Below, one piece after another: positions 11,760-25,121 of a stretch of 32,000 nucleotides of DNA. Position 1 is the first letter of the stretch, and the number at the start of each line of letters is the position of its first letter. Source of the stretch: Pseudomonas aeruginosa (GTDB taxonomy: Bacteria; Pseudomonadota; Gammaproteobacteria; Pseudomonadales; Pseudomonadaceae). A program made the translations under genes and the position numbers. The stretch is from NCBI RefSeq assembly GCF_001457615.1, contig NZ_LN831024.1, positions 3,180,001 to 3,212,000 on the forward strand, in the 5' to 3' direction. The notes under the pieces are model-generated. The model saw only the letters and a list, made by a program, of their open reading frames with translations. It made no database searches and was not told where the DNA came from.

Positions 11760-12469
11760 GCCAACCGCAACCGCGCATCGAGGTGGCCGCCATCGACAGC
11801 TTCGTCCTGCGCCTGTTCGAGCGCATCGACGAAGCCAACATGCCCTGGCTGCTGGCGGCGGAGGAAAACCTGCGGGCGGCGTTCGGCGCCGCCCTGCTCG
11901 ACCTGGTGCCGTCCTACACCACCCTGCTCCTGCAATACGACCTGCTCCAGCTCGACCCTGGCGAGGCCCGCGCGCGGATCGCCGCGGCGCTGTCCGACTT
12001 GCACCCGAGACGCCAGGACGGCGGCCGCCTGCACATCCTGCCGACCTGGTACGACCCGCGGGTCGGCCCCGACCTGGAACCCCTGGCGCGGCGCAAGCAG
12101 CTCGGCGTCGCCGAGCTGATCCGCCGCCACAGCCAGCGCGAGTATCGGGTCTTCGCCCTCGGTTTCAGCCCCGGCTTCGCCTTCATGGGGCTGGTCGAGG
12201 AAGCCCTGGCGGCACCCCGCCTGGCGACTCCCCGGCAACGCATCGCCGCCGGCAGCGTCGGCATCGCCGAGCGCCAGACGGCGGTCTATCCGCAGGCCTC
12301 GCCAGGCGGCTGGAACCTGCTCGGGCGCTGCCCGGTGCGCCTGTTCGACCTCACCCTGGACGGCTACAGCCTGCTGCGCGCCGGCGACCGGGTGCGTTTC
12401 GAACCCATCGGACACGCCGAATTCGTCCGTCTCGGCGGCGACGACACGCCCCTGGAGGTCCAGGCATGA
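11756..12469 (+). CDS. pxpB: 5-oxoprolinase subunit B (KipI / allophanate hydrolase subunit 1-like)
   Basis: ATGA start/stop overlap with pxpA. Sequence [12 protein letters not shown]... [16 protein letters not shown]... [25 protein letters not shown]. Confidence 0.88.
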
Positions 12470-13407
12470 ACGACTCCATCCACGGCGGCCTGCGGGTGTG
12501 CCAGAGCACCCCGCTGGTCCAGTTGCAGGATCGCGGCCGCTTCGGCTGCCGCCATCTCGGCGTGACCCAGGGCGGCGCCCTCGACTGGCTGTCCATGGGC
12601 TGGGCCAACTGGCTGCTGGGCAATCCCCTGGACGCCGCGGTGATCGAGATCGCCCTCGGCGGTTTCGTCGCCGAATGCCGTGCCGACGGCTGGTTGGCCC
12701 TGGCCGGCGGCGACCTCGGCACGACCCTCGATGGCCAGCCGCTACCGGCCTGGGGCGCGTTCGCCGTGCGCGGCGGCCAGCGCCTGGCCTTCGCCCACCC
12801 ACGCCAGGGCGCCCGCGCCTACCTGGCGGCGCCCGGCGGCTTCGCCGGCGAGCGCCAGTTGGGCAGCCTGGCCACGGTGGCCCGCGAAGGCCTGGGCGGC
12901 CCCCGCGCCGACGGCAAGGCCCTGGCCGCAGGCGACAGCCTCGGCTGGCTGGCCGATGGCGCGCGACCGCGCGCGCTGCCCCTGCCCAGCGAACGGATCA
13001 TGGACTGCACCGGCGAAGCGCGCCTGGAGCTGATCCTCGGCGCGCAGATCGGCGACTTCCCGGCCATGAGCCTGTTCGATGCGTTCAACGGCGACTGGCA
13101 GGTGGATACCCGCGCCGACCGCATGGGCGTACGTCTGCTCGGCCCGCGCCTGGAATGCCGGCAGCAGTCGATGATCTCCGAAGGCATCGCCCTCGGCGCG
13201 GTGCAGGTGCCGCCGGACGGTCAGCCGATCGTCCTGCTCAACGACCGCCAGACCATCGGCGGCTACCCCCGTCTCGGCGCCCTCGCCCCGCTGGCGCTGG
13301 CGCGCCTGGCGCAATGCCTGCCAGGCCAGCCGGTACGGCTGCTGCCGACGGTGCAGGAGGCGGCGCACCGCGAGCATCGACGCCTGCTGGCGGCCTGGGA
13401 CGCATAG
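12466..13407 (+). CDS. pxpC: 5-oxoprolinase subunit C (KipA / allophanate hydrolase subunit 2-like)
   Basis: ATGA overlap with pxpB. Sequence LQDRGRFGCRHLGVTQGGALD ... DRMGVRLLGP ... NDRQTIGGYPRLG. Confidence 0.88.
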   Translation: MNDSIHGGLRVCQSTPLVQLQDRGRFGCRHLGVTQGGALDWLSMGWANWLLGNPLDAAVIEIALGGFVAECRADGWLALAGGDLGTTLDGQPLPAWGAFAVRGGQRLAFAHPRQGARAYLAAPGGFAGERQLGSLATVAREGLGGPRADGKALAAGDSLGWLADGARPRALPLPSERIMDCTGEARLELILGAQIGDFPAMSLFDAFNGDWQVDTRADRMGVRLLGPRLECRQQSMISEGIALGAVQVPPDGQPIVLLNDRQTIGGYPRLGALAPLALARLAQCLPGQPVRLLPTVQEAAHREHRRLLAAWDA

Positions 13408-13474: not shown

Positions 13475-13951
13475 ATGCCCAGTCGCCTGTCACTGATCGC
13501 CGCCCTGCTGTTGCCCCTGGCCGTCCAGGCCGAACCCGCTGATACCCGGGCCCTGCTCGCCGACAGCCTGGCCGACAGCCAGGCCCAGGTGGAGGCAGCC
13601 GAGCAAGCCATGCGCCGTTCCGAAAACAAGGCGGTGCAGCTCTATGCCAAGCGCGTACTCACCGAACAGCAGGAGTTCGACCATCAGTTGCGCGCCCTGG
13701 CCGGGGAAAAGGCCTTGGCGCTGCCCTCGCCGCGCCAGACCGAACGGCAGGCCGCCGCTCCCGGCGGCTTCGACGAGCGCGGTTTCCTCGACGCGCAGAT
13801 TCGCCAGCAGGACCGTCTGGTCGCACGCTTCGAGGGAATCGCCCGGGACTCCGCCGATCCTGACCTGCGCCGCTTCGCCGACGAATGGCTGGCGCGCTTC
13901 TACCACCACCGCGAACTGGCCGACCAGTTGCGTAGCGGCCGCGCCGACTGA
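13475..13951 (+). CDS. Secreted DUF4142-like protein
   Basis: GGAGG SD. Signal peptide MPSRLSLIAALLLPLAVQA followed by a helical domain with DUF4142-like features (family from memory). Confidence 0.72.
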   Translation: MPSRLSLIAALLLPLAVQAEPADTRALLADSLADSQAQVEAAEQAMRRSENKAVQLYAKRVLTEQQEFDHQLRALAGEKALALPSPRQTERQAAAPGGFDERGFLDAQIRQQDRLVARFEGIARDSADPDLRRFADEWLARFYHHRELADQLRSGRAD

Positions 13952-13969
13952 GCGCCGCGACCGCCTTGC

Positions 13970-15742
13970 TCAGTGCCGCGCGAGGACCTGCCGGGCGCTC
14001 TGGCGAATCACCCCCCAGCGCTTGGGATCGTCCTGCAGCATGGCGCCAAGCAGGTGCTTGGCCTGCTCGAAACTGATGTGCGGCGGCAGCGGCGGCACGT
14101 TCGGGTCGGTGACCACCTCCAGCAGCACCGGGCGGTCGGCGGCGAAGGCCTCGGCCCAGGCGGCGTCGATGTCCTCCGGGCGATCCACGCGGATGCCCTT
14201 GAAGCCGAGCATGTCCGCATAACGCGCGTAGGGGAAATCGATCACTTCCTGCGCCGGGCTGAACTCCGGGTCGCCGGCCAGGGCACGCTGCTCCCAGGTC
14301 ACCTGGTTGAGATCGCCGTTGTTCAGCACCAGCACGATGAAGGTCGGCGAGTCCCAGCGCTGCCAGTACTGCTGCACGGTGACCAGTTCGGCGTTGCCGT
14401 TCATCTGCATGGCGCCGTCGCCGACCATCGCCACCACCGGCCGCTGCGGATAGGCGAGCTTGGCGGCGATGGCGTAGGGCACGCCGCTGCCCATGGTCGC
14501 CAGCTTGCCCGACAGCGAGCCGAGCATGCCCGGGCGCATGCGGATGTCGCGGGCGTACCAGTTGGTATGCGAGCCGCTGTCGCCGCAGAGAATCGCATCG
14601 TCCGGCAGTTGCTCCGACAAGGAACGGAATACCCGCTGCGGGTTGATCGGGTCGGCTGGCTCTTCGGCCTGGCGCCGGGCTTCCTCGCGACTGGCCGTCA
14701 CCGCCCGCTCGACCCGGCGGCGCCAGGCGCCGTGCTTTTTCTGCTCGAGCAGCGGCAGCAGGCGCTCCAGGGTTTCCCCTGCATCGCCGAGCAAGGCCTG
14801 GTCGATCGGATAGCGGATACCGATGTTGCGCGGATACAGGTCGATCTGCACCGCCCGCGCCTGGCCGGCCTTGGGTAGGAACTCGCTGTAGGGGAAAGTG
14901 CTGCCGACGATCAGCAGGGTGTCGCAATGCGACATCAGCATGCTGCTGGCGCGGGTGCCGAGCAGGCCGATGGAGCCGGTCACGTACGGCAGGTCGTCGG
15001 AAACCGCCGCCTTGCCCAGGAGCGCCTTGGCCACTCCGGCGGCCAGGCGCTCGGCGACCGCTTCCAGTTGCCGGTGCGCGCCCAGGGCCCCGGCACCGGC
15101 GAGGATCGCCACGCGCCGGCCGCGATTGAGGATCGCCGCGGCGGCTTCCAGGTCGGCGTCGCGCGCGTAGGGTCGCGGCTGGACGAAGCCCACCGCCGAC
15201 ATCACGTGGCCGTGCTCGTGGGGCTGGCGCTTCGGGGCCGCCATCTGTTGCACGTCGTTGGGCACGATCACCGTCGCCACCTGCCGCTCGCCGACCGCCA
15301 CGCGCAGGGCTCGGTCCAGCACATGGAGCAGTTGTGCCGGGCTGACCACGGTCTCGACATAGGCGGAAACGTCCTTGAACAAGCTCTGCAGATCGACTTC
15401 CTGCTGGTAGTCGCTGCCCAGCGCGGTAGCCGCCTGCTGGCCGACGATGGCCAGCACCGGCTGATGATCCATGCGCGCGTCGTAGAGCCCGTTCAGCAGG
15501 TGGATCGCGCCCGGCCCCGAGGTGGCCAGGCACACCCCGACCTCTCCGGTGAACTTGGCGTGGGCGCCGGCCATGAAGGCCGCCATCTCCTCGTGGCGCA
15601 CGCGGATATAGTCGAATGCCTCGGCGCGCCGGCCCATGGCGCCCATGATCCCGTTGATGCCATCGCCGGGGTAGCCGAAGACGCGCTTCACCCCCCACTG
15701 GCTCAAGCGTTCGAGCAATTGATCGGCAACCGTGCTGGACAT
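13970..15742 (-). CDS. Thiamine-pyrophosphate-dependent enzyme, pyruvate oxidase/PoxB-like
   Basis: AGGAGG SD. N-terminal TPP-pyrimidine domain (VFGYPGDGINGIM...RHEEMAAFMAGAHAKFTGEVGVCLATSGPGAIHLLNGLYDA) and a C-terminal TPP-binding GDGAMQMNGNAEL motif. Confidence 0.9.
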   Translation of the reverse strand: MSSTVADQLLERLSQWGVKRVFGYPGDGINGIMGAMGRRAEAFDYIRVRHEEMAAFMAGAHAKFTGEVGVCLATSGPGAIHLLNGLYDARMDHQPVLAIVGQQAATALGSDYQQEVDLQSLFKDVSAYVETVVSPAQLLHVLDRALRVAVGERQVATVIVPNDVQQMAAPKRQPHEHGHVMSAVGFVQPRPYARDADLEAAAAILNRGRRVAILAGAGALGAHRQLEAVAERLAAGVAKALLGKAAVSDDLPYVTGSIGLLGTRASSMLMSHCDTLLIVGSTFPYSEFLPKAGQARAVQIDLYPRNIGIRYPIDQALLGDAGETLERLLPLLEQKKHGAWRRRVERAVTASREEARRQAEEPADPINPQRVFRSLSEQLPDDAILCGDSGSHTNWYARDIRMRPGMLGSLSGKLATMGSGVPYAIAAKLAYPQRPVVAMVGDGAMQMNGNAELVTVQQYWQRWDSPTFIVLVLNNGDLNQVTWEQRALAGDPEFSPAQEVIDFPYARYADMLGFKGIRVDRPEDIDAAWAEAFAADRPVLLEVVTDPNVPPLPPHISFEQAKHLLGAMLQDDPKRWGVIRQSARQVLARH

Positions 15743-15912
15743 TCTCGCCTCCTGGTCGTGTCTGGGGTCGTACCAATGAGGACTGGCGCCGCAGGCGAGG
15801 GTTCAAGGCAATCGAGCGGCGGTGCCGACGGCGAAATCGACTGAACTGTCGGCGCGGGCGACCGGCCCAAGGGACAGGGCCCGCATGGGCGCAATCGCCA
15901 GGAGGTGCCGCC

Positions 15913-16311
15913 ATGACCCGCGCCATCAACGATCCCGGAAACGAAGACCCCGGCTCCCTGCTGGAAACCGACGCCGACGCCCTGCTCGGCGGTGCCGCCG
16001 CCCAGGCGCCGGAAGAGCGCTGCCGGCTCGCAGCCCAGGCCTGCATCCGCGCGTGCGAGCGCTACCTGGCGCTCTGCATCGAGTCCAGCAGGGAACAACG
16101 CCAGCACGCCGGCGACTGCGCCGACCTCTGCCGCCTCGCCGCCCTGCTACTGGAGCGCCGCAGCCCATGGGCGCCGGCCGCCTGCGAGCTGGCGGCGCGC
16201 TATGCCCTGGCATGCGCGGAGCGTTGCGATGGCGACGAGCCGCTGGAGCGCGAATGTGCGGGTGCCTGCCGGCGCTTCGTCGAGGCCTGTCGGCCGTTGT
16301 TGCCGGCCTGA
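15913..16311 (+). CDS. Cys-rich four-helix-bundle protein (DUF326 / copper-storage Csp-like)
   Basis: AGGAGG SD. 12 Cys in 132 aa, mostly as C-x3-C on predicted helices (CIRAC, CADLC, CAERC, CAGAC). No signal peptide. Confidence 0.8.
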   Translation: MTRAINDPGNEDPGSLLETDADALLGGAAAQAPEERCRLAAQACIRACERYLALCIESSREQRQHAGDCADLCRLAALLLERRSPWAPAACELAARYALACAERCDGDEPLERECAGACRRFVEACRPLLPA

Positions 16312-16402
16312 GGCCCTCTGGCATTGCATGGAGCTGCCGGGCGTGGCGAGGGTGACCTGTGGCGTAGAATGGGAAACCGACGGCCATGTCGACGGTAGTC
16401 GC

Positions 16403-17137
16403 TCAACCCAGTACCAGTACCACCCTACGGGTGCGCGCTGATTTCTTCTCCATCTTGGAAACGCGCACCACCCCAACTTCTTCGGTATTCGCCACATGGG
16501 TTCCACCGCAAGGCTGCAGGTCGGTGTCTTTAATACTCACCAACCGAACCTGCCCGGCGCCCATCGGAGGTTGGACACTCATGGTGCGCACCAGATCTGG
16601 CCTAGCCCGCAGTGCATCGTCGCTCATGGTGTCGATCGAAACCGGATGTGCTGCCTCGACCATTGTCGCCAAGGCGCTATCAATGGCCTCGCGGGACAGC
16701 GGTTCACTCGTCACGAAGTCCAGGCGCGCATGCTCATCAGTGATGCTGCACCCATTGACCGGATAGGGCAGGACAGCACAGAGCATGTGCGCTGCGGTAT
16801 GCAGTCGCATGTGCCGGTAACGACGCACCCAATCGATCTGCGCAAGAACCACCTCGCCAGGCTTCATTGCTCGGAGAACGGTTGCCTGGCCTTCAGCTGG
16901 GATATGCAGGATGGCATCCCTGCCAGCACCTGCTTCTGTCCCCTTGCGTGTATCGGCGATCCGGAGCCGCGTGCCATCAGCCAGCGTCAGCCAACCACTG
17001 TCTCCAGCCTGGCCACCCCCCTGGGGATAGAAAACGGTCTGGTCGAGCAGCAGGCCATCTTCAACGAGATCGGTGATTCTCGCCAAACACTCTTCCCGGT
17101 AGGAGTCCTGGAGAAAAAGGGAGGCGGTCTGCGTCAT
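16403..17137 (-). CDS. AlaX-like alanyl/threonyl-tRNA synthetase editing-domain homologue (tRNA_SAD)
   Basis: Intact Zn motifs HTAAH (H113/H117) and CGGTH (C210/H214) and an N-terminal AlaRS-type barrel (FYPQGGGQAGD). ATGA overlap with the upstream acetyltransferase gene. Confidence 0.88.
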   Translation of the reverse strand: MTQTASLFLQDSYREECLARITDLVEDGLLLDQTVFYPQGGGQAGDSGWLTLADGTRLRIADTRKGTEAGAGRDAILHIPAEGQATVLRAMKPGEVVLAQIDWVRRYRHMRLHTAAHMLCAVLPYPVNGCSITDEHARLDFVTSEPLSREAIDSALATMVEAAHPVSIDTMSDDALRARPDLVRTMSVQPPMGAGQVRLVSIKDTDLQPCGGTHVANTEEVGVVRVSKMEKKSARTRRVVLVLG

Positions 17138-17877
17138 GATGCCTCCATTGGTTGAATTTGGGTCTGCGTGGCTGCCGGCTGTAGTTGCTGAACTATGTGG
17201 GGGCCTCGGATGACCTGTAGTTCAGAACGCAGGGTTACGACTGAACCGACAGGGATGTCGTCCTTGATGACACAATGCGGACCGACAAACACATCGTCGC
17301 CGATAGCGATGTCACCCAGTACACGCGTGAAGGCCCCGATTTGGACGCGGCTCCCTATGGTGGGGTGACGCTTACCGGCGGGATTAGCCGATATGCCAGT
17401 TGCCCCCAATACCACACCTCCGAGGATGTAACAGTCATCACCGATTACCGCTGTCTCGCCAATGACCGTGCCATGCCCATGGTCCAGGATGAATCGACTG
17501 CCAATCTTGCATCTTGGGTGGATTTCCGCGCCCGACAGGAGCTTTCCACGAGAGGAGACCAGGAGCGCGGTAGCCTCCAACGCTCTCTCAGGATCGCCTT
17601 CAGATGTGCTTCGCAGACACAGCATGTGGGAAAGCCGGTAGTGCAGCACTGCCTTAAACGAGCTGTAGCCAAACGCAATGTCGGATGTCCGTCCCTGTGC
17701 GGCTGGATCCTTGCTGGCGAATGCCTGCAGGTCTTCCTCGCACCAACGTCTGGCTTCTTCGAACATCGAATGAGCGACTATCCGCTCCACCAGTTGGGGT
17801 GAGCAGCACTCCATCAATGCCGCGCGCATCAGATTACCTACCAGTTTGTCCATCGCATGCGACCTCATTTCGACCAT
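17134..17877 (-). CDS. Serine O-acetyltransferase-like hexapeptide-repeat acyltransferase (CysE family)
   Basis: SATase-like N-terminal helical region (DPAAQGRTSDIAFGYSSFKAVLHYRLSH) and a left-handed beta-helix (IHPRCKIGSRFILDHGHGTVIGETAVIGDDCYILGGVVLG...KRHPTIGSRVQIGA). The alternative start ATG 17853 has a better GAGG SD. Confidence 0.85.
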   Translation of the reverse strand: MVEMRSHAMDKLVGNLMRAALMECCSPQLVERIVAHSMFEEARRWCEEDLQAFASKDPAAQGRTSDIAFGYSSFKAVLHYRLSHMLCLRSTSEGDPERALEATALLVSSRGKLLSGAEIHPRCKIGSRFILDHGHGTVIGETAVIGDDCYILGGVVLGATGISANPAGKRHPTIGSRVQIGAFTRVLGDIAIGDDVFVGPHCVIKDDIPVGSVVTLRSELQVIRGPHIVQQLQPAATQTQIQPMEAS

Positions 17878-17910
17878 GCAAGCGTTATCGCCGTGCTCTG
17901 CTCTACAACT

Positions 17911-18828
17911 TCATCGAAAAGCGTCCATGTATGACTCGACGCCATCGTAGATCATCGTCAGTACACGAGCGCCTGACGGCATGGCAGATGCCATGTTCAG
18001 CACCGCGACCAGGTTGGCTGCGGAGGACAACCCCATGCTCACAGAGTCGTTTTGCAGGACTTCCCGGATCATCGACAAGCAGGCAGATTTCGACACCCCG
18101 ACCATGCCAGTAACAATGCCGAGGTTGCAGACTTCCGGCACGATACCAATGGAAAGTCCCTGAATCTCATGCGGTGCGTGCCTATCGTCGAGCAAGTCGC
18201 ACTGCTCTGGCTGCACGCCATAGATGGCCATATCCGGCCAGTGGTTCCTCAGCACCTCTCCAACACCCGTGATATGTCCACCAGTTCCAATGCCAGCGAA
18301 GAAGAAGTCCGGGGGTGGCTGGCCTGCAAAGTCCCTCAGGATTTCCAGGGCTGTAGCTTCGCGATGGGCTTGCGGGTTGGCTGGATTGCGCTGCTGGTTG
18401 AGCATGACGAACTCCGGATGTTCCAGCAGTATCTGGATTGCCAGCTCGCCATGCGAGTTGTTCCCTTTTCTGCTATCCGACAGCACGACGTGAGCGCCAT
18501 ACAGCTCGAGCAATTGTCTCTTGTCAGGGCTGTAGTTGTCGGGAACCACCAGGGTCACGCGGTACCCCAGGATGTTCCCCGCCATTGCCAGTCCAATCCC
18601 CGTATTTCCCCCGCTCGGCTCGAGAATGGTCTGCCCTTTCCCGCGCACCAGGATTCCTTTGCGTTCGGCATCCAGAATCATCCAGAGCGCGATACGCGCC
18701 TTATGACTTCCTCCTGGATTGAAGGATTCCAGCTTGGTGAATACGCTCACCCCCAGGCGAGCAGACAATTTGCTCAGCCGTATCACCGGCGTCCCGCCAA
18801 TTAAATCGAGTAGCGAATCGTAGATCAT
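17911..18828 (-). CDS. PLP-dependent cysteine synthase-family enzyme (CysK/CysM-like, divergent active-site motif)
   Basis: LIGGTPVIRL...ESFNPGGSHKARIA (PLP Lys43), EPSGGNTGIGLA and GIGTGGHITG are fold-type II PLP signatures. Confidence 0.9.
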   Translation of the reverse strand: MIYDSLLDLIGGTPVIRLSKLSARLGVSVFTKLESFNPGGSHKARIALWMILDAERKGILVRGKGQTILEPSGGNTGIGLAMAGNILGYRVTLVVPDNYSPDKRQLLELYGAHVVLSDSRKGNNSHGELAIQILLEHPEFVMLNQQRNPANPQAHREATALEILRDFAGQPPPDFFFAGIGTGGHITGVGEVLRNHWPDMAIYGVQPEQCDLLDDRHAPHEIQGLSIGIVPEVCNLGIVTGMVGVSKSACLSMIREVLQNDSVSMGLSSAANLVAVLNMASAMPSGARVLTMIYDGVESYMDAFR

Positions 18829-18846
18829 GCTTTCCCTGCCTATGGT

Positions 18847-20265
18847 TCAGTACATCGGCATGTGCTGCTCTATCTCTTTCGCCCATCGCTTCATGCCGCC
18901 ATCGAGCACTTGGACGTTGGAGAACCCTGCCCCCATGAGCTGTATGGCCGCGCGTTCGGCACGAGTGCCGGCGTAGCACACGAGGATGTAGCGCTTACTG
19001 AAGTCGAGATTGGCGAAATGGCTGGCGAGTTCGTTCAAGGGAACGTGGACGATCCCCGGCAACTGGCACACTTCGAGCTCGCCCGCGTCGCGTACATCCA
19101 GAAGGGCATAGTTTTCGCTGTTGGATTTCATCAACTGCAACAGGCAGCTGGGATCGATATAGCGATCGTCGTCGAGTCGTTGCGACGGTGCCGCGCTTGC
19201 CTGGCAGAGCAATCCCTCCCTCCAGTGGCGGGGATTCTCTGCAGCGGTTTTGCCGCAGGCCGGACAATCGTCGCGCCGATTGAACTTCACTTCATTGAAG
19301 TGCATGAGCAGCGCGTCGAATCGAAGAAGTCTGCCTGATAGGGACTTGCCCAGGCCGACGAGGGCCTTCACCGCCTCGGTTGCCTGCAGCAGGCCAATCA
19401 CTCCAGGCAGCACACCAATAACTCCCCCTGCGTTACAGCTTGGAGCCACCTCAGGCGGGGGATTGTTCGGGAAGAGACATTGGTAGCAGGGGCCTCCCTC
19501 CAGATTGAAGACGCTGACCTGACCTTCGAACCGATAGATCGCGCCAAAGACGAGTGGTTTTCCGAGCTTGGCGCAAACCGCGTTGACCAAGTAACGTGTG
19601 GCGAAGTTGTCGGTGCCATCCAATACCAGGTCATAGCTCTGAATCAGTGACTGCGCATTGTCCGCGTCGATGGCGTAACGGTGGGTTACGACTTCAATGT
19701 AGGGGTTCAGGTCCTGCATCCGGCGCTGGGCGGACTCAACCTTCGGCATACCGAGCGTGCTATAGCCATGGACGACCTGGCGCTGGAGATTGCTCGACTC
19801 CACCACGTCAAAGTCAACCAGCCCGATGGTGCCCACTCCTGCTGCGGCCAGATAAAGGCAAGCGGGCGAACCCAGGCCGCCCGTTCCGATTATCAGCACC
19901 CTGGCCTGCTTCAGGCGCTGCTGGCCTTCCCTGCCAACGCCTGGCAACGTGATGTGGCGAACGTAGCGTTGAACTTCTTCGTCGCTCAACGCTTCAACGC
20001 CAGAACCGCCAGATGTCGCGAGCATGACTTCGACTTCATCTCCATCGGAAAGCTCGCCATCCAGATTGACTAGCGAACCTTTGTGGGTCAGCAGGAAGTG
20101 TTCTTTCAATTGACCGTTTTCGTAATACAGGTGCCCGAGTAATGAAGGATGCTTCCTGGCAAGGCCTGCCAGCAGCTCGCCAACCGTCAAGCCCGCTCCC
20201 TCCAGGCGCCCGCCTTCCAGTTGGGCGGCCCGTACCAGTACTTCCGGAAAAATTACCGTCTTCAC
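18847..20265 (-). CDS. Tri-domain fusion: MoaD/ThiS-like ubiquitin-fold domain (aa 1-87, ending ...EVEVMLATSGG), MoeB/ThiF E1 adenylyltransferase and a C-terminal rhodanese
   Basis: GTG start with AAGGAG SD. Nucleotide-binding LIIGTGGLGSP, Zn CxxC pairs (CYQC, CPAC) and a rhodanese active-site loop VCYAGTRAE. The internal Gly-Gly is at codons 20010..20005. Confidence 0.9.
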   Translation of the reverse strand: MKTVIFPEVLVRAAQLEGGRLEGAGLTVGELLAGLARKHPSLLGHLYYENGQLKEHFLLTHKGSLVNLDGELSDGDEVEVMLATSGGSGVEALSDEEVQRYVRHITLPGVGREGQQRLKQARVLIIGTGGLGSPACLYLAAAGVGTIGLVDFDVVESSNLQRQVVHGYSTLGMPKVESAQRRMQDLNPYIEVVTHRYAIDADNAQSLIQSYDLVLDGTDNFATRYLVNAVCAKLGKPLVFGAIYRFEGQVSVFNLEGGPCYQCLFPNNPPPEVAPSCNAGGVIGVLPGVIGLLQATEAVKALVGLGKSLSGRLLRFDALLMHFNEVKFNRRDDCPACGKTAAENPRHWREGLLCQASAAPSQRLDDDRYIDPSCLLQLMKSNSENYALLDVRDAGELEVCQLPGIVHVPLNELASHFANLDFSKRYILVCYAGTRAERAAIQLMGAGFSNVQVLDGGMKRWAKEIEQHMPMY

Positions 20266-20287
20266 TTTTCAGCTCCTTGCCAGATGT

Positions 20288-20746
20288 CTACTCGTCCTGG
20301 CTCGATGGCCCGAACTCTCGTGTGCATTCAAAGCGTCCGTTGCGCCAGGCAAACAGTTTTGCGCCGCGAACGTTGCCGGCGGCCACATCAACAACCAGGT
20401 AGTCGACCGGCAGCATTGGCTCCCCGGCATACAATGCCTTGTCGATATCCTCCCGGCTGAAGTAGGCACCGACGTCCGGGTGGGAGTGGTAGATGACGGA
20501 TACCGGGCTGCACGTCTTGAAGCTGCTGTTGAGGAATACGGTATCCGTCACGGAAAACGTGTACCCGTTGGCGGCCGTGCGTGGGTACCTCCGGGGGTCA
20601 GCCATGTGCAGTTCATCCTGGATGTTCGTACCCTCTTTCACTTTTGCATCGGCGAGAACGAATCCGCAGCATTCCCTTGGATAGGTCCTGCAGGCGTGTC
20701 TGTAGATCACGCTCAATGCATGCTCGGTCAACACGTTCGTATTCAT
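20288..20746 (-). CDS. JAMM/MPN+ (Mov34, Mec+/QbsD-like) metallopeptidase
   Basis: AGGAGG SD 6 nt before ATG 20746. Complete JAMM motif: E25 (PRECCG) and HSHPDVGAYFSRED (H-x-H-x7-S-x2-D). The stop of the upstream EamA gene lies 1 nt before this ATG. Confidence 0.88.
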   Translation of the reverse strand: MNTNVLTEHALSVIYRHACRTYPRECCGFVLADAKVKEGTNIQDELHMADPRRYPRTAANGYTFSVTDTVFLNSSFKTCSPVSVIYHSHPDVGAYFSREDIDKALYAGEPMLPVDYLVVDVAAGNVRGAKLFAWRNGRFECTREFGPSSQDE

Positions 20747-20747
20747 G

Positions 20748-21689
20748 TCACCTCCTGCCGAGCAGCTTCTCGATGGGAAGCTTGGTGATGGCAAATCCAG
20801 CCAATAGGAGCACGGTGAAGCCAATCAACTCGCGAGAGATGGCAACCCCTTCGTACCAGGCGCCGATGATCACGGCGAACACCGGGAAAATGATGAAGAC
20901 GAACGACAGCACAACGGGACTCAAACGCTTGAGCAGGAAGAAGTACACGATGAATCCCCCGACTGATGCCACCAGACCGAGATAGATCAGGGCAGCCCAA
21001 GATCGGCTTGTGACGGCAGACAGGTTCGGGTGTTCCATCACGAGTCCGGCCATGAACAGCCCCAAGCCGGCGATGCCAATGGGCAGCGTATTGAAGGTGA
21101 TCACGCCGATGTCAGCACCTTGCCTTTTGGTGATGACGTAGCTGAGTGCGTGCATGATCGCCGCGAGCAGGATGGCAAGTACGCCTAACAACTCCGTGTA
21201 GTCCAGATGCAGCCCTTGAGACCTGATGATCATGAACAGGCTGCCGAAGCCAATCGCAATACCAAGGATCTGCGACAGGTAGATGCGCTCGCGCAGGAAG
21301 ATCGCGGAGAAGATCAGGATGAACACGGGCATGCTGCTGAACAGCAGCGCGGTAAGACCTGAAGCGACGTATTGCTCGCCATAGTTCAGCAGGTAGTAGG
21401 GCACGCTGAAGTAGCCGAGCGTCACGAAGACGAAGAAGGCCAGGAGTCGCCGCGGGAAAAAGATCGTCTCGTGGCGCAGCCGCGCAAAGAGCAGGAAAAG
21501 CGGAAATGCGATCAGAAAGCGCAATCCGGCGGCAGTTAGCGGCGGCACGCTCTCCACGGCGATCTTGATGCCGAGCCAGGTAGTCCCCCAGCTGATACAC
21601 ACCACTAGAAATAGAACAGCGGTCACCAGGCTGGCCACACGTACCTGCCGCCTGTTGATAGTCAGAGCTTGAATTGACATAAGTTGCAC
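20748..21689 (-). CDS. EamA/DMT-family transporter (10 TM; same family as the E. coli O-acetylserine/cysteine exporter EamA)
   Basis: Two EamA-type repeats of hydrophobic helices (CISWGTTWLGIKIAVESVPPLTAAGLRFLIAFP...). Start is GTG 21689 or ATG 21680. Confidence 0.88.
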   Translation of the reverse strand: MQLMSIQALTINRRQVRVASLVTAVLFLVVCISWGTTWLGIKIAVESVPPLTAAGLRFLIAFPLFLLFARLRHETIFFPRRLLAFFVFVTLGYFSVPYYLLNYGEQYVASGLTALLFSSMPVFILIFSAIFLRERIYLSQILGIAIGFGSLFMIIRSQGLHLDYTELLGVLAILLAAIMHALSYVITKRQGADIGVITFNTLPIGIAGLGLFMAGLVMEHPNLSAVTSRSWAALIYLGLVASVGGFIVYFFLLKRLSPVVLSFVFIIFPVFAVIIGAWYEGVAISRELIGFTVLLLAGFAITKLPIEKLLGRR

Positions 21690-21720
21690 GTCTTTCCCCC
21701 ATGTTATTCTTTGATTGACG

Positions 21721-21750
21721 CCCTTTATTGCTTATCAAACCTCTTTATTT
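21721..21750. promoter_or_regulatory. Candidate MocR operator: direct repeats CC(C/T)CTTTATT spaced 20 bp apart in an AT-rich divergent promoter region
   Basis: CTTTATT at 21723-21729 and 21743-21749, plus TTGAT (21711-21715) / ATCAA (21734-21738) inverted half-sites, within the 81-bp gap between the operon and the MocR gene. Confidence 0.3.
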
Positions 21751-21770
21751 GAGGTTAATTCGGAGAAAAT

Positions 21771-23204
21771 ATGCCGGTCAAAGCAAATATTGACACCGAT
21801 TCAATTTTCAGATTCTTCCTACCAGAAGGGCCCGGCCTGAAGTACAAACGGCTGGCCCAGGGCATCGAAGAATCTATTCGCAATGGGGTTCTCCGGCAGG
21901 GAGTCAAGCTGCCGCCACATCGCATCCTCGCGGACAAGCTCGGTGTGACCGCGGGCACGGTGAGCCGGGCCTATGGTGAGCTGGAGCGCATGGGGCTGGT
22001 TGAGGCTCGGGTCGGCGACGGTACGTTCGTCCGCAACCGCGGTCGAGAACGTGCTCGGGAGGCGGGCTTTCGCAATTTCGTAGACAGCACCGAGATGTGC
22101 AACGACATGAGCCGGAATATGCATATTCCGGGCAATGAGACCGAACTGCTTTCCCGCAGCCTTCAGCAATTGAGTGCGGCCCCTGAGCTCCTGCAGGAGT
22201 TAATGCTCTACACACCCGACACAGGACTGCTCCGACACCGGCAAGCGGGAGCAACATGGCTGTCTCACGGTGAGTTTCAAGCGGAGCACCAGCAGATTCT
22301 GTGCGTCAATGGCAGCCAACACGGTCTGCTCGTCGTGCTTATGGCCATGCTGCGCGCCGGCGACACCCTGGTAACGGAGCAGCTCTCCTATCCTGGGCTG
22401 ATCAGTGCCGCGCAACTGTTGGGCATCAAGGTGCTCGGCTTGGAAATGGATGAAGAGGGGCTACTGCCCGACGCCCTCGAAGAGGCCTGCCGCACGAACA
22501 GGATCACCGCCCTGTACTGCACACCCACCATCCAGAACCCGACCACTGCAGTGATGTCAGGCGCCAGGCGGAAGGAAATCGCGAAGATCTGCCGCGAGCA
22601 CGGCTTGATCGTCATCGAGGACGAAACCCATGCTGTATTGATGGCCGAACGCCCCACCCCTCTCTGCCATCTGCTGCCTGAGCGGGGCATCCTCATCGGT
22701 GGCATGAGCAAGGCGGTCGCTGCAGGATTGCGGGTTGGATACGTTCATGCTCCTGCATCCATGGTAAGTCGCATGGCAGCAGCGCTTCGCAATTCGTGCT
22801 GGATGGCGACACCACTGGTTCTCGAGATTGCGAGCCGATGGGTCGAGGACGGTACTGCAAGCGCACTGCTCGAATACCAGAGAGGGGAAATCGCGCGTCG
22901 CCAAGCGCTGGTTGTGGACCTGCTGCAGGGCCTGACCTATCGCAGCCATCTATGCTGTCCGCATTTCTGGGTAGAAGTGCCAGCCCCCTGGCGCGCCATC
23001 GAAATAGAGCAAGGCATGCGCGGACAGCAGCATCTTGTCACCACCGCAGAGGCCTTTAGTACGGGCCGCGGTACGCTTCCCCAGGCCATTCGAATCAGCG
23101 TCAGCAATTCCCCAGGAGGGGGGAATACGTTATCTGACGGCTTCGCAGTCCTGGCAGCGCTCCTACGCGAAGGCCCCCAAGAGATGCTGACGATGCGTGC
23201 TTGA
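21771..23204 (+). CDS. MocR-subfamily GntR regulator (wHTH plus a PLP aminotransferase-like effector domain)
   Basis: GntR HTH (KLPPHRILADKLGVTAGTVSRAYGELERMGLVEARVGDGTFV) and a fold-type I domain with the PLP-Lys motif GGMSKAVAAGLRVGY. Confidence 0.9.
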   Translation: MPVKANIDTDSIFRFFLPEGPGLKYKRLAQGIEESIRNGVLRQGVKLPPHRILADKLGVTAGTVSRAYGELERMGLVEARVGDGTFVRNRGRERAREAGFRNFVDSTEMCNDMSRNMHIPGNETELLSRSLQQLSAAPELLQELMLYTPDTGLLRHRQAGATWLSHGEFQAEHQQILCVNGSQHGLLVVLMAMLRAGDTLVTEQLSYPGLISAAQLLGIKVLGLEMDEEGLLPDALEEACRTNRITALYCTPTIQNPTTAVMSGARRKEIAKICREHGLIVIEDETHAVLMAERPTPLCHLLPERGILIGGMSKAVAAGLRVGYVHAPASMVSRMAAALRNSCWMATPLVLEIASRWVEDGTASALLEYQRGEIARRQALVVDLLQGLTYRSHLCCPHFWVEVPAPWRAIEIEQGMRGQQHLVTTAEAFSTGRGTLPQAIRISVSNSPGGGNTLSDGFAVLAALLREGPQEMLTMRA

Positions 23205-23424
23205 TACGGGAGGCAACGGTCCCACCCGAGGAGGACTCTTGGGCTCAACGGTAGCGATAAGCACCGGCGCCTGACTAAGGCATACCTATGGTCCGAGATC
23301 TACCATGGATTTCACTCGCCTGGGACGGCGAAACAAGAAGTCGAGGCAGCCACGAAAAGCAGCTAGACCATCCAGCGTGAAACCCACCCAAGCTTTAATC
23401 CGTTCTATCCATCCTGCGCAGAGC

Positions 23425-24201
23425 CTAACCCCGCGACAACCACGCCATCACCGCTCGGTTCACCCACGGCGGAGACAACTGCCCAGCCCAGTACAGCGCC
23501 GTGAACAACCCGCCCACCGGCCGGTGTACCCGCCGGCTGTGCGCCTGCCGCCAGGCCGCCTCGGCGATATCCTCGGCGTCCAGTCTCAGCCCCAGGCGAC
23601 GCAACACCGGCGGCTGGTAGGGCTGCCCGGCGACCATCGGCGTGCGGACGAACGGCGGCATCAGGTCGGCCACACGAATACCGTGGCGGCGCCATTCCAG
23701 CTCCAGCGCCTCGGTAAGCCCGCGCACGGCGAACTTCGAGGCCGAGTAGACGGCCATCTCCGGTACGCCATACAGCCCCGATGCCGAGCCCATGTTGAGC
23801 ACCTGCGCCTGCGGCGTCGCGCGCAGGAACGGAAAGGCCGCGTGACAGCAGTTGAGGACGCCTTGCAGGTTGATCGCCAGCAACCGCGCGTGGTCCTCCA
23901 GGGCGACCTCTTCGAAGCGGCCGAAACGCAGGACGCCGGCGCAGTTGAACAGCAGGCGCAGGCGGCCATCGGCACAGAACTGCGCAAGCGCCTCGCCGAC
24001 CACGTCGGGCTCGCTGACGTCCACGGCGCGGTGCCAGGCGCCCGGCAGTTGCGCGGCCAAGCCGCGCAACGCCTCGGCATCGATGTCCAGCAAACCGACC
24101 CGCCAGCCCCGGCGGTGGAACAGACGCGCGCTGGCGGCGCCGATTCCGGAAGCGGCACCACTGATCAGGATGTTCTGCACCTGTCGCCCTCCGCGCTGCA
24201 T
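23425..24201 (-). CDS. Short-chain dehydrogenase/reductase (classical SDR)
   Basis: NILISGAASGIGAA (TGxxxGxG), NCAG and a YSASK catalytic motif. Start is ATG 24201 or GTG 24180 (the latter preceded by GGAGGG). Either start overlaps the 3' end of the esterase gene. Confidence 0.88.
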   Translation of the reverse strand: MQRGGRQVQNILISGAASGIGAASARLFHRRGWRVGLLDIDAEALRGLAAQLPGAWHRAVDVSEPDVVGEALAQFCADGRLRLLFNCAGVLRFGRFEEVALEDHARLLAINLQGVLNCCHAAFPFLRATPQAQVLNMGSASGLYGVPEMAVYSASKFAVRGLTEALELEWRRHGIRVADLMPPFVRTPMVAGQPYQPPVLRRLGLRLDAEDIAEAAWRQAHSRRVHRPVGGLFTALYWAGQLSPPWVNRAVMAWLSRG

Positions 24202-25121
24202 TCGACGACGAACGCGGCCGCCTCGTCCAACGCCCGGTCGGCGCTGGCCAACACGCCGGCATGGGCCTGGAACACGTGCCAGCAACCGGCGTAGCGCTGC
24301 AATCGCACCGCGACGCCCTGCTCACCGGCCCGTTGCGCCAGGCGCAGGCTGTCGTCGCGCAGCAGTTCGTCCTCGCCGACCTGTACCAGCAGCGGCGGCA
24401 GCCCCGCCAGGTCGGCATGCAGCGGCGACAAGGCGGCCGAGCCTGGCTCCGCGTCGGCCGGCAGCAGCAGGCGCACCGCGCTTTCCAGCCAGGCCCGCGA
24501 CAGCAGCGGGTCGCCGGCCGCCGGCGTGTGCAGGCGCTGGCAGCCGAGGTCGGTCCAGGGCGAGAACAGCAGCAACCCGGCCGGCAACGGCAAGCCGCGC
24601 GCCTTCAGCTCCAGGGCCAGGGACAGCGCCAGGTGGCCGCCCGCGGAGTCGCCGGCGAGCAGCAGCCGGCGCGGCGAATGGCCGGCCTCCAGCAATGCCA
24701 GGTAGACCGCCAGGGCGTCGTCGCGGGCGGCGGGGAACGGATGTTCCGGGGCGCGCCGGTAGTCCACCGCGCAGACCTCGGCGGCGCAACGCCGGGCCAG
24801 GTGCGTGGTGATCGCCCGGTGGGTCGCCGGCGAGCCGATCAGGTAGGCGCCGCCGTGCAGGTAGAGCACCCGGCGCCGCGCCTCCACCCCGCGCGGCCGC
24901 AACCACTCGCAGGGCACGCCGGCGAGGCTGCGGCGCTCGCGGACGACGCCGCCGGCGCCCAGCGTCGCCAGGCTCAGCCCGCGCAACACGCCGCGTTGCA
25001 GCGCCACTGGCATGGGCGGACGGACCAGCCCGCGGAACAACAGGCGCAGGCAGCCGCGCAGGAGACCGGCGCGCAGGCGTTGCGGCGGCGACATCAGGGG
25101 CGCTTCAGCGGGCCAGGTCAT
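24165..25121 (-). CDS. Alpha/beta-hydrolase esterase, hormone-sensitive-lipase (family IV) type
   Basis: HGGAY oxyanion motif and GDSAGG nucleophile elbow. Start is ATG 25121 or ATG 25094. Confidence 0.85.
   Translation of the reverse strand: MTWPAEAPLMSPPQRLRAGLLRGCLRLLFRGLVRPPMPVALQRGVLRGLSLATLGAGGVVRERRSLAGVPCEWLRPRGVEARRRVLYLHGGAYLIGSPATHRAITTHLARRCAAEVCAVDYRRAPEHPFPAARDDALAVYLALLEAGHSPRRLLLAGDSAGGHLALSLALELKARGLPLPAGLLLFSPWTDLGCQRLHTPAAGDPLLSRAWLESAVRLLLPADAEPGSAALSPLHADLAGLPPLLVQVGEDELLRDDSLRLAQRAGEQGVAVRLQRYAGCWHVFQAHAGVLASADRALDEAAAFVVECSAEGDRCRTS

Follow-up and report, generated by a model that had tools for sequence, protein, structure and literature searches.

The best available comparison for the genes described here is the CysO-CysM-Mec+-MoeZ(R) pathway of Mycobacterium tuberculosis, which makes cysteine from a protein thiocarboxylate. 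The genes lie in a 32,000-nucleotide stretch of Pseudomonas aeruginosa DNA (contig NZ_LN831024.1, positions 3,180,001 to 3,212,000; the window in what follows), where six packed genes and one divergent regulator gene form an islet. This locus is PA2100-PA2106 of P. aeruginosa PAO1, and the published tags are PA2100 (named MdrR2 in PMC9431628), PA2101, PA2102, PA2103 “MoeB”, PA2104 “probable cysteine synthase”, PA2105 “probable acetyltransferase” and PA2106. On balance, and with some reserve, the islet is read as a horizontally mobile module, in which a regulator-exporter unit is joined to a self-contained, carrier-based cysteine cassette that would be independent of free sulfide. The analogy to CysO-CysM-Mec-MoeZ and to QbsCDE, drawn in a preliminary description of the window, holds up as the best reading at hand, the chemistry itself being conjectural.

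Like the M. tuberculosis pathway, the locus encodes together a Gly-Gly-ending carrier of ThiS/MoaD fold, an E1-like enzyme with a C-terminal rhodanese domain, a JAMM peptidase and a pyridoxal phosphate (PLP) enzyme of fold-type II, and the free ubiquitin-like (Ubl) protein found in relatives of its Ubl-E1 matches CysO. In contrast to that pathway, the carrier is fused to its own E1, which lies inside the operon, a serine acetyltransferase (SAT) points to O-acetylserine as the acceptor and away from O-phosphoserine, and the PLP enzyme is not a CysM orthologue. An exporter, an AlaX and a MocR regulator are added, in a host that already has CysK, CysM and CysE. The QbsC/D/E (thioquinolobactin) and PdtF/G/H (pyridine-2,6-dithiocarboxylate, PDTC) systems of Pseudomonas share the E1-rhodanese, the JAMM peptidase and a small carrier, but they thiolate an aromatic acid adenylate for a siderophore and have no PLP enzyme, SAT or AlaX. 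QbsD, a JAMM peptidase, trims the residues past the Gly-Gly of QbsE, and similar processing would be needed for the carrier of the window.

The Escherichia coli CysE-CysK/CysM enzymes with the EamA (YdeD) transporter share with the module SAT and O-acetylserine sulfhydrylase chemistry and a DMT-superfamily transporter; here the SAT lacks the C-terminal Ile and has Glu for D143, the transporter is not a YdeD orthologue and the sulfur donor would be a protein thiocarboxylate. AlaX and AlaX-M proteins share with PA2106 the HxxxH and CxxxH zinc motifs and the AlaX-M layout; PA2106 differs by lying below the AlaXM equivalog cut-off and by being embedded in, and translationally coupled to, a metabolic operon. 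In the MetO-MetM-Mec-MoeZ route of Streptomyces albulus, as cited in bioRxiv 10.1101/2024.10.14.618325, a carrier thiocarboxylate also thiolates an amino acid and a JAMM peptidase (Mec) matures the carrier, but that account gives O-phosphohomoserine as substrate, a threonine-synthase-like enzyme and homocysteine as product. MoaX of M. tuberculosis, a fused MoaD-MoaE, is likewise a sulfur carrier made as a fusion whose cleavage is required for activity, as reported in PMC4326299; there the fusion partner is a synthase subunit, not an E1, and the pathway is molybdopterin biosynthesis.

The core of the locus (Ubl, E1 with rhodanese, JAB and cysteine synthase) was catalogued as an uncharacterised operon type, with P. 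aeruginosa named, in Table 1, row 4c, of Iyer, Burroughs and Aravind 2006 (PMC1779556). The neighbouring genes of the window place its core in this class, whose E1 is noted there as rhodanese-fused. The passages of that paper on the class mention no SAT, AlaX, EamA, MocR, Ubl-E1 fusion at the locus or islet strain variability. The system had been called undescribed in the preliminary description, which stands for its biochemistry: the searched literature holds no functional or biochemical study of PA2101-PA2106, only transcriptome tables and the mention of PA2104 and PA2105 as candidate paralogues. It does not stand for the core, listed in 2006, nor for the genes, annotated as PA2100-PA2106. 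What was known before is thus the core, from computation, and the analogous pathways characterised in actinobacteria. To judge by the literature searched, several features appear to be new: the conserved seven-gene architecture, its modular tie to a MocR-EamA unit that also stands alone, the repeated recruitment of AlaX, the polyproteins in which the carrier is joined to its E1 or to both peptidase and E1, and the strain variability of the islet.

The fused carrier, its activating enzyme and the peptidase

Pfam domains are counted only above gathering scores, which all module products pass, and each product falls in this way into the family that the preliminary description had named for it. 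NCBIfam scores are judged against curated cut-offs, the nearest families being AlaXM, CysE/EpsC, CysK/M, MoeB/MoeZ, YedA and EhuR. The sole cut-off passed is that of the broad MoeB subfamily model NF004281 (316 bits against 266), and no equivalog model is reached. By these scores the module proteins are distinct subfamilies and not orthologues of characterised enzymes.

PA2103 carries the carrier at its N-terminus. The ThiS model scores 26.5 bits in the full protein and 31.1 bits on residues 1-90, above its cut-off of 22.5, and is followed by ThiF (281 bits, residues 101-335) and Rhodanese (55.2 bits). NCBIfam MoeB/MoeZ models reach 393-430 bits, MoeZ itself 393 against a cut-off of 647. Among 13 homologues with 53-100% identity, L82, A83, S85, G86 and G87 are invariant, and the Gly-Gly is followed by a variable linker of 2-4 residues and then by the conserved E1 N-terminus LS(N/D)EE(V/I)xRY. 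In the same alignment both CxxC pairs and the crossover-loop C277 are invariant or nearly so, and C430, the active-site Cys of the C-terminal rhodanese, and R435 are invariant.

The best PDB sequence matches of the Ubl domain are SAMP1 and MoaD; in the phmmer alignment, residues 25-87 finish at the C-terminal Gly-Gly of SAMP1, and likewise with MoaD. An AlphaFold2 model of the fusion, built on the 13-homologue alignment, has an N-terminal beta/alpha domain with a confidence score (pLDDT) of 76-92, and residues 85-90 fall below 50 between two confident domains; a single-sequence model of the Ubl alone, at 41, was unusable. The E1-rhodanese body of the model resembles Uba4, MoeB and ThiF, with Foldseek placing the E1 domain on MoeB 1JW9_B at a template-modelling (TM) score of 0.83 and 46% identity.

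Distant relatives carry a CysO-like Ubl unfused. A minimal cluster (locus L035) has a separate Ubl open reading frame of 92 residues, ending in ...VAGGR*, in frame directly before the E1 start, and the best PDB matches of this free Ubl are 4N6E_B and M. tuberculosis CysO, 3DWG_C (about 1e-19). At another locus (L057) the Ubl is fused to the E1 via a longer linker. The fusion claimed in the preliminary description is thus real and conserved, with an invariant Gly-Gly and free CysO-like proteins at the same position in distant relatives. The invariant Gly-Gly, the ThiS match, the flexible junction and these free relatives together argue that the fused domain, of the beta-grasp ThiS/MoaD family and fused here rather than free, is a bona fide CysO-like carrier, which would have to be released after the Gly-Gly. 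In one P. aeruginosa genome (GCA_053211075.1, L112 about 14290-14300), a C-to-T change makes Gln15 of the Ubl a stop, and a 447-residue E1-rhodanese is called there without the carrier, a natural loss-of-function allele.

PA2102, which has a Prok-JAB domain, keeps the JAMM motif (E-C-C-G and HSHPDxGAYFSxED, that is E...HxHx7SxxD) in all nine orthologues, and its only PDB sequence match is 2KCQ, of the Mov34/MPN/PAD-1 family. The P. yamanorum/brenneri group (for example L022 8001-9860) has the JAMM domain fused N-terminally, which gives a JAB-Ubl-E1-rhodanese protein of 619 residues. In this fusion, cleavage at the Gly-Gly would leave the carrier joined to its own peptidase.

Table 1. Features of the islet; coordinates are those of the window.
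Feature	Position	Strand	Evidence
Whole accessory islet, 7 genes, 7,115 bp	16315-23429	n/a	blastn breakpoints and G+C content
AlaX-M-like trans-editing protein, 244 aa, PA2106	16403-17137	-	tRNA_SAD 47.8 bits, tRNA-synt_2c 33.8 bits
Serine-O-acetyltransferase-like hexapeptide acyltransferase, PA2105	17134-17877	-	Hexapep 59 bits; start uncertain, callers 17853 or 17829
CysK/CysM-family PLP beta-replacement enzyme, 305 aa, PA2104	17911-18828	-	PALP 243 bits
Ubl-E1-rhodanese, 472 aa, PA2103, annotated MoeB	18847-20265	-	Pfam ThiS, ThiF, Rhodanese; GTG start
Rhodanese domain, residues ~378-463, active-site loop CYAGTR	18877-19134	-	Pfam Rhodanese
E1-like adenylyltransferase domain, residues ~93-342	19240-19989	-	ThiF, Foldseek
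Ubl carrier domain (ThiS/MoaD/CysO-like), residues 1-87, ends LATSGG	20005-20265	-	ThiS, alignment
JAMM/MPN+ metallopeptidase, 152 aa, PA2102	20288-20746	-	Prok-JAB 68 bits
EamA/DMT-family transporter, 310 aa, PA2101, presumed exporter	20748-21680	-	Pfam EamA x2, 145 bits
Divergent promoter/operator region, MocR-EamA intergenic	21681-21770	.	Sequence reading, orthologue comparison
MocR regulator (GntR helix-turn-helix and fold-type-I aminotransferase-like domain), PA2100/MdrR2	21771-23204	+	GntR 56.8 bits, Aminotran_1_2 89.6 bits

Putative acceptor enzymes, AlaX-like protein and regulator-exporter unit

PA2104 belongs to the CysK/CysM family, as the preliminary description had it, but it is no closer to M. 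tuberculosis CysM than to CysK-type enzymes. The cysKM subfamily model of NCBIfam gives 272 bits against a cut-off of 344, and the best PDB sequence matches are CysK-type enzymes and the O-ureidoserine synthase DcsD (203-216 bits), ahead of the M. tuberculosis CysM chains (164-166), so an orthologue of that O-phosphoserine user was rejected. The CysK-family lysine (motif SHKAR), the glycine-rich phosphate loop and the Asn loop are all present. Since PA2104 is nearer the CysK type, what points to its use of a protein thiocarboxylate is its constant adjacency to the carrier system, in the full and in the minimal clusters. The SAT of the operon points to O-acetylserine as the probable substrate of the PLP enzyme, which by its matches is of another lineage than CysM.

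PA2105, the SAT, reaches 141.2 bits with the cysE model TIGR01172, below the equivalog cut-off of 210.65. All nine orthologues share D92, D157, H158, R192 and H193 with E. coli CysE and have Glu in place of D143; these six are catalytic or substrate-binding residues of CysE (E. coli numbering, from the literature on 1T3D). The protein ends in ...QPMEAS, none of the nine orthologues has the CysK-docking Ile and the N-terminal helical domain is shortened. With the CysE residues kept and with the Ile tail and the full helical domain missing, PA2105 likely forms O-acetylserine and probably acts without complex formation with CysK. The missing tail fits a PLP enzyme whose active site has to admit a protein tail. 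The built-in supply of O-acetylserine proposed in the preliminary description is supported by the serine-binding and catalytic residues that the protein keeps. In a second group of SATs (P. indica, Pseudomonas sp. PIC25, Pseudomonas sp. Bout1 and a Granulosicoccaceae), about 100 extra C-terminal residues have no Pfam match (L007 about 12391-13389, L008, L022 10822-11814, L009). This tail ends in Gly-Gly in the three Pseudomonas (...PTIGG*, ...LIVGG*), possibly as a second carrier-like tail, and the Granulosicoccaceae version has no Gly-Gly.

PA2106 aligns to archaeal AlaX (2E1B, 2ZZE) and to the editing domains of AlaRS, with the AlaX-M layout, and scores 184.6 bits with the AlaXM model, whose cut-off is 300. 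Both zinc motifs, H113-TAA-H117 and C210-GGT-H214, are present in all module orthologues and in housekeeping AlaX. The AlaX proteins of the modules belong to three lineages, with both motifs in each. Lineage A, which comprises those of the window, Bordetella, P. ribeironis and P. chlororaphis, shares 55-67% identity with the housekeeping AlaX that Pandoraea, Burkholderia and Paraburkholderia encode at a syntenic position; PA2106 itself is 59-63% identical to that of Burkholderiaceae. Lineage B is about 40% identical to lineage A, and the AlaX of the Burkholderia module 27%. AlaX co-varies with SAT.

Some observations concern AlaX genes and their neighbourhoods. In the Burkholderia-type module, the divergent AlaX-like gene has an in-frame stop in a metagenome contig (L024 10503-11201) and is intact in a genome copy (L025); Burkholderia has a housekeeping AlaX elsewhere, and the module copy may be dispensable there. 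The housekeeping AlaX gene of Pandoraea, Burkholderia and Paraburkholderia is always followed by a DUF924 gene, often overlapping it (L026-L028 8001-9400), and this neighbourhood also has truncated-globin, MacB/FtsX-family permease and KdpD/E genes. In Pseudomonas sp. Bout1, two ABC-transporter genes follow AlaX (L022 12773-15855), one encoding a fused permease of 581 residues and the other an ATPase with an AAA_assoc_C domain; they were considered as a sulfur importer of the module and rejected, being absent from all other modules.

PA2101 probably starts at the ATG at 21680, because ATGTCAAT is conserved there in orthologues; the end at 21689 given in the preliminary description is a GTG three codons upstream. 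That description assigned the transporter to the family of the E. coli O-acetylserine/cysteine exporter, which is right for the EamA/DMT superfamily and no further: the model of that exporter (NF008523) gives 44.7 bits against 472, by which orthology to EamA/YdeD was rejected, and the best NCBIfam model is YedA (100.7 against 270). The family is tight, the 120 best matches all being at least 71% identical.

PA2100 is a MocR regulator, with the PLP-lysine motif SKxxxxGLRxG in all nine orthologues (SK at residues 313-314). To call it PLP-sensing, as had been done, is imprecise: it is a PLP-dependent regulator closest to EhuR, the ectoine regulator, but not EhuR itself (452 bits against 480). In the divergent region, two boxes recur by eye in orthologues, AATTAACCT beside the MocR start and GGTCAAT(T/C) further on, and the window box near the MocR start has the inverted repeat AACCTC-N7-GAGGTT. 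A scan for consensus promoters and terminators gave no more than expected from shuffled sequence, and no hit in the divergent region.

The MocR-EamA pair also occurs without the five downstream genes, in P. mandelii and Castellaniella defragrans (L120 6500-8933; L121 6477-8936), with EamA 75-80% identical. The P. mandelii pair has the same neighbours, on the ppsA side and on the prpD side, as the full Bout1 module. From these stand-alone pairs, the biosynthetic genes are an add-on to an independent regulator-exporter unit, or have been lost from one. This suggests an ordinary metabolite, and not an exotic product, as the cargo of the transporter.

Distribution, expression and the islet in P. 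aeruginosa

All seven genes occur in one order in nine distinct taxa, with flanks that differ per genus (tblastn of the seven window proteins), so the whole set co-occurs across genera in the neighbourhood check that had been proposed. Besides the window, the loci are those of Bordetella genomosp. 1, Paraburkholderia ribeironis, P. chlororaphis, P. indica, Pseudomonas sp. PIC25, Pseudomonas sp. Bout1, a Burkholderia, in which the SAT-AlaX pair is inverted, and a Granulosicoccaceae metagenome-assembled genome. MocR is divergent from the EamA gene at every locus. Identity to the window proteins ranges from 26 to 88%, highest for the transporter (63-88%) and lowest for SAT and AlaX. A scan of genome contigs with the fusion protein gave four full-length relatives, the other eight matches being plain MoeB/MoeZ without any other module gene. 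A metagenome scan gave remoter relatives (41-47% identity) in minimal PALP-JAB-Ubl-E1-rhodanese clusters, and the PALP gene adjoins JAB-Ubl-E1 even in those that lack all other module genes.

In the window, the six co-directional minus-strand reading frames, the divergent MocR gene and all spacings given in the preliminary description are verified by the open reading frame listing and translation. The EamA stop is separated by 1 nt from the JAMM ATG at 20746, the next three gaps are of 22 nt (JAMM to E1), 18 nt (E1 to PALP) and 33 nt (PALP to SAT), and the SAT and AlaX genes overlap by 4 nt (ATGA). For JAMM, the listed start, a TTG at 20824, would run into the EamA gene; the ATG at 20746 is the real start, which gives 152 residues as in the gene callers.

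Published transcriptomes report the genes as induced by two treatments. N-acetylcysteine raises PA2100-2103 (log2 0.7, 1.7, 1.2 and 0.8), which are listed outside the Zur regulon (PMC9431628), and RpoH overexpression raises PA2101-2104 and PA2106 by 4.3-, 3.8-, 3.3-, 3.2- and 2.2-fold (PMC9866376). This joint induction with a 5'-to-3' gradient is consistent with a single transcript beginning at PA2101. A PAO1 cysK cysM double mutant is almost auxotrophic for cysteine, with late residual growth (PMC12895370; PMC12800425) that possibly comes from further O-acetylserine sulfhydrylase-like enzymes (PMC12895370, PMC12800425), PA2104 and PA1061 being named as candidates (PMC12800425). The operon fails to sustain this mutant in M9 medium (PMC12895370). 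The pathway is not housekeeping: many strains are without the islet and cysK cysM PAO1 barely grows without cysteine.

The islet is flanked by genes for an OprD-family porin, FecR with a sigma factor and a Csp copper-storage protein, all of which match P. aeruginosa. Its G+C content is 0.581 against 0.698 in the remaining window, with a local trough of 0.56-0.61 against about 0.70. Breakpoints lie at 16314/16315 and 23429/23430, since blastn aligns L110, a P. aeruginosa locus without the islet, with 15713-16314 and 23430-24419 and with nothing else of the window, and island-free strains have a 408-bp spacer, resembling repetitive extragenic palindromes (REP), in place of the 7,115 bp. When the flanking Csp gene is followed across assemblies, it is directly next to the short-chain dehydrogenase gene, with no islet, in nine of ten distinct contexts. 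As a rough guide to frequency, the Csp protein is found in 13,169 index blocks and the exact fusion protein in 1,632. The low G+C content, the breakpoints and the island-free strains therefore show that the gene set is an islet acquired horizontally and variable between strains. At its borders no integrase, tRNA or direct repeats were seen, no PLSDB plasmid gave a megablast match to it, and no Rfam family reached its gathering score anywhere in the window.

The spacer that the islet replaces (L110 10400-10802) has many REP-like palindromes, GTAGGGCGAATAACGCC...GGCGTTATCCGCC, and a 35-bp stretch of it is 89% identical, inverted, to window 23315-23349. The Csp-family (PF03860) gene PA2107, at 15913-16311 on the plus strand, abuts the islet; it is core genome and is not beside the module in other genera. 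The region just past the DUF4142 gene is a P. aeruginosa hot spot (L002 and L004 17142-21419; L116 1-7243), which holds a Trb/VirB-type conjugative element in some strains and, in one strain, a defence island with a BrxR/WYL regulator, a helicase, a DprA-like protein and type I restriction-modification genes. Three long, Arg/Pro/Gly-rich open reading frames of the window, at 13659-16046 (-), 15822-16355 (+) and 23305-24294 (+), overlap the true thiamine pyrophosphate (TPP)-enzyme, Csp and dehydrogenase genes and are high-GC artefacts.

Proposed pathway, competing explanations and implications

The scheme proposed for the module is putative in all its chemistry, as are the compound exported, the effector and the purpose of AlaX. 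The PA2102 peptidase would cut PA2103 after Gly87 to give an 87-residue carrier with a free Gly-Gly carboxylate, which the E1 would adenylate and which a persulfide on rhodanese Cys430 would convert to a thiocarboxylate. PA2105 would turn L-serine into O-acetylserine, and the PLP-aminoacrylate formed on PA2104 would be attacked by the carrier thiocarboxylate, with an S-to-N acyl shift to carrier-Cys. PA2102 would then hydrolyse carrier-Cys to free L-cysteine and recycled carrier, PA2101 would export cysteine or a close relative and PA2100 would set expression via a PLP-bound amino compound. PA2106 would clear serine, or another small mis-charged residue, from tRNA-Ala during pathway operation. 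An ordinary AlaX activity would be required for as long as the pathway operates. The intact motifs of the module, the seven-gene set kept across genera and the precedents above count for this cysteine scheme.

Several points weigh against it. The module enzymes all score below the NCBIfam equivalog cut-offs. AlaX is in every module, although the scheme does not require it. The substrate (Asn) loop of PA2104 is (S/T)GGNTG in place of the canonical TSGNTG, and it is from gene context that this enzyme would be assigned a protein thiocarboxylate. N-acetylcysteine is a cysteine prodrug, and its induction of a cysteine-biosynthetic operon is odd. The sulfur donor of the rhodanese, if it were cysteine via IscS, would make cysteine synthesis circular, and the donor question is also unsettled for MoeZR (PMC3227635).

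A further reading, which is regarded as doubtful, makes the module an auto-regulated cassette for production and export of a thiol amino acid. In it, AlaX would belong to the module as an immunity or fidelity part, since the product or an intermediate would be charged onto tRNA-Ala, and the carrier, in some species together with the peptidase, would be a self-processing polyprotein with its E1.

With the same enzymology as in the cysteine scheme, the product could, instead of proteinogenic cysteine, be a toxic or signalling beta-substituted thio amino acid that is exported, AlaX being self-protection against mis-charging of tRNA-Ala, which is unlikely. AlaX is obligatory in the nine modules and comes from three lineages, arguing strong selection on generic editing; no module protein is better conserved than the dedicated exporter, and both the atypical substrate loop of the PLP enzyme and the constant Glu of the SAT would suit another product. 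The one precedent found is CtdA, a trans-editing factor devoted to canavanine, which is a non-proteinogenic amino acid. Yet the module has no tailoring enzymes, the SAT keeps all the serine-binding residues, so that O-acetylserine and thiocarboxylate would give cysteine, and the MocR-EamA pair of enzyme-free genomes suggests an ordinary transported metabolite. Lineage-A AlaX is, moreover, equally close to housekeeping AlaX and to other module AlaX. The secreted exotic metabolite suggested in the preliminary description is weakened by the stand-alone pair and by the lack of tailoring enzymes.

AlaX would receive its textbook substrate if the module relieved serine or O-acetylserine overflow stress, with MocR sensing the excess, EamA exporting it, the SAT and a carrier-dependent PLP enzyme draining it into cysteine and AlaX correcting Ser-tRNA-Ala. 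MocR regulators bind amino compounds through PLP, as is known of the family, the SAT and AlaX genes, which overlap, vary together as one cassette, and a stand-alone regulator-exporter unit exists. Such a role is nevertheless improbable: a carrier system that spends ATP is a costly sink when there are serine deaminases, induction was reported for a cysteine derivative and not for serine, and serine transport by PA2101 is without support.

There is also a small chance that the two halves of the operon are separate, with PA2104 and PA2105 as an ordinary cysteine synthase pair that uses sulfide or thiosulfate, and with the Ubl, E1-rhodanese and JAMM proteins serving tRNA thiolation, a cofactor or SAMP-like conjugation, AlaX marking the tRNA link. 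The CysK-like character of PA2104, the SAMP1 and MoaD matches of the Ubl, the resemblance of the E1 to Uba4, which serves tRNA thiolation, and the binding of tRNA by AlaX all agree with this. However, even minimal clusters have the PLP gene beside JAB-Ubl-E1, which is the arrangement of the proven pathway of M. tuberculosis, none of the loci has a TtuA/Ncs6-like thiouridine synthetase or an E2-like gene, and the SAT lacks the tail that normally pairs with CysK.

That the cluster is merely left over from horizontal transfer, without function and decaying in P. aeruginosa, is highly improbable. The low G+C content and strain variability of the islet, the nonsense codon at Ubl Gln15 in one genome and the failure to sustain the cysK cysM mutant in M9 medium (PMC12895370) would agree with decay. 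Against it, the window and the other genera have the seven reading frames and every catalytic motif intact, the exact fusion protein recurs in 1,632 index blocks and the genes respond jointly to N-acetylcysteine and to RpoH overexpression.

The operon is present in PAO1, the standard P. aeruginosa laboratory strain, and is absent from many clinical strains. It could account for the residual growth that studies of 2025-2026 describe for cysK cysM mutants, and it bears on cysteine synthesis as an antimicrobial target. MdrR2 (PA2100) adjoins its probable primary target operon, and its effector is thus testable. With its invariant Gly-Gly junction, the fusion is a clean bacterial system in which to follow how a Ubl is released from its own E1 by a JAMM peptidase, which in some species is in the same fusion. 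SAT is constantly paired with AlaX, and AlaX was recruited from at least three lineages, which points to a link of this pathway with translational fidelity that had gone unrecognised. If the reading with AlaX as an immunity or fidelity part were true, the polyprotein would be a bacterial counterpart of deubiquitinase-dependent maturation of ubiquitin precursors, and the module would be the first known biosynthetic operon with AlaX-type protection.

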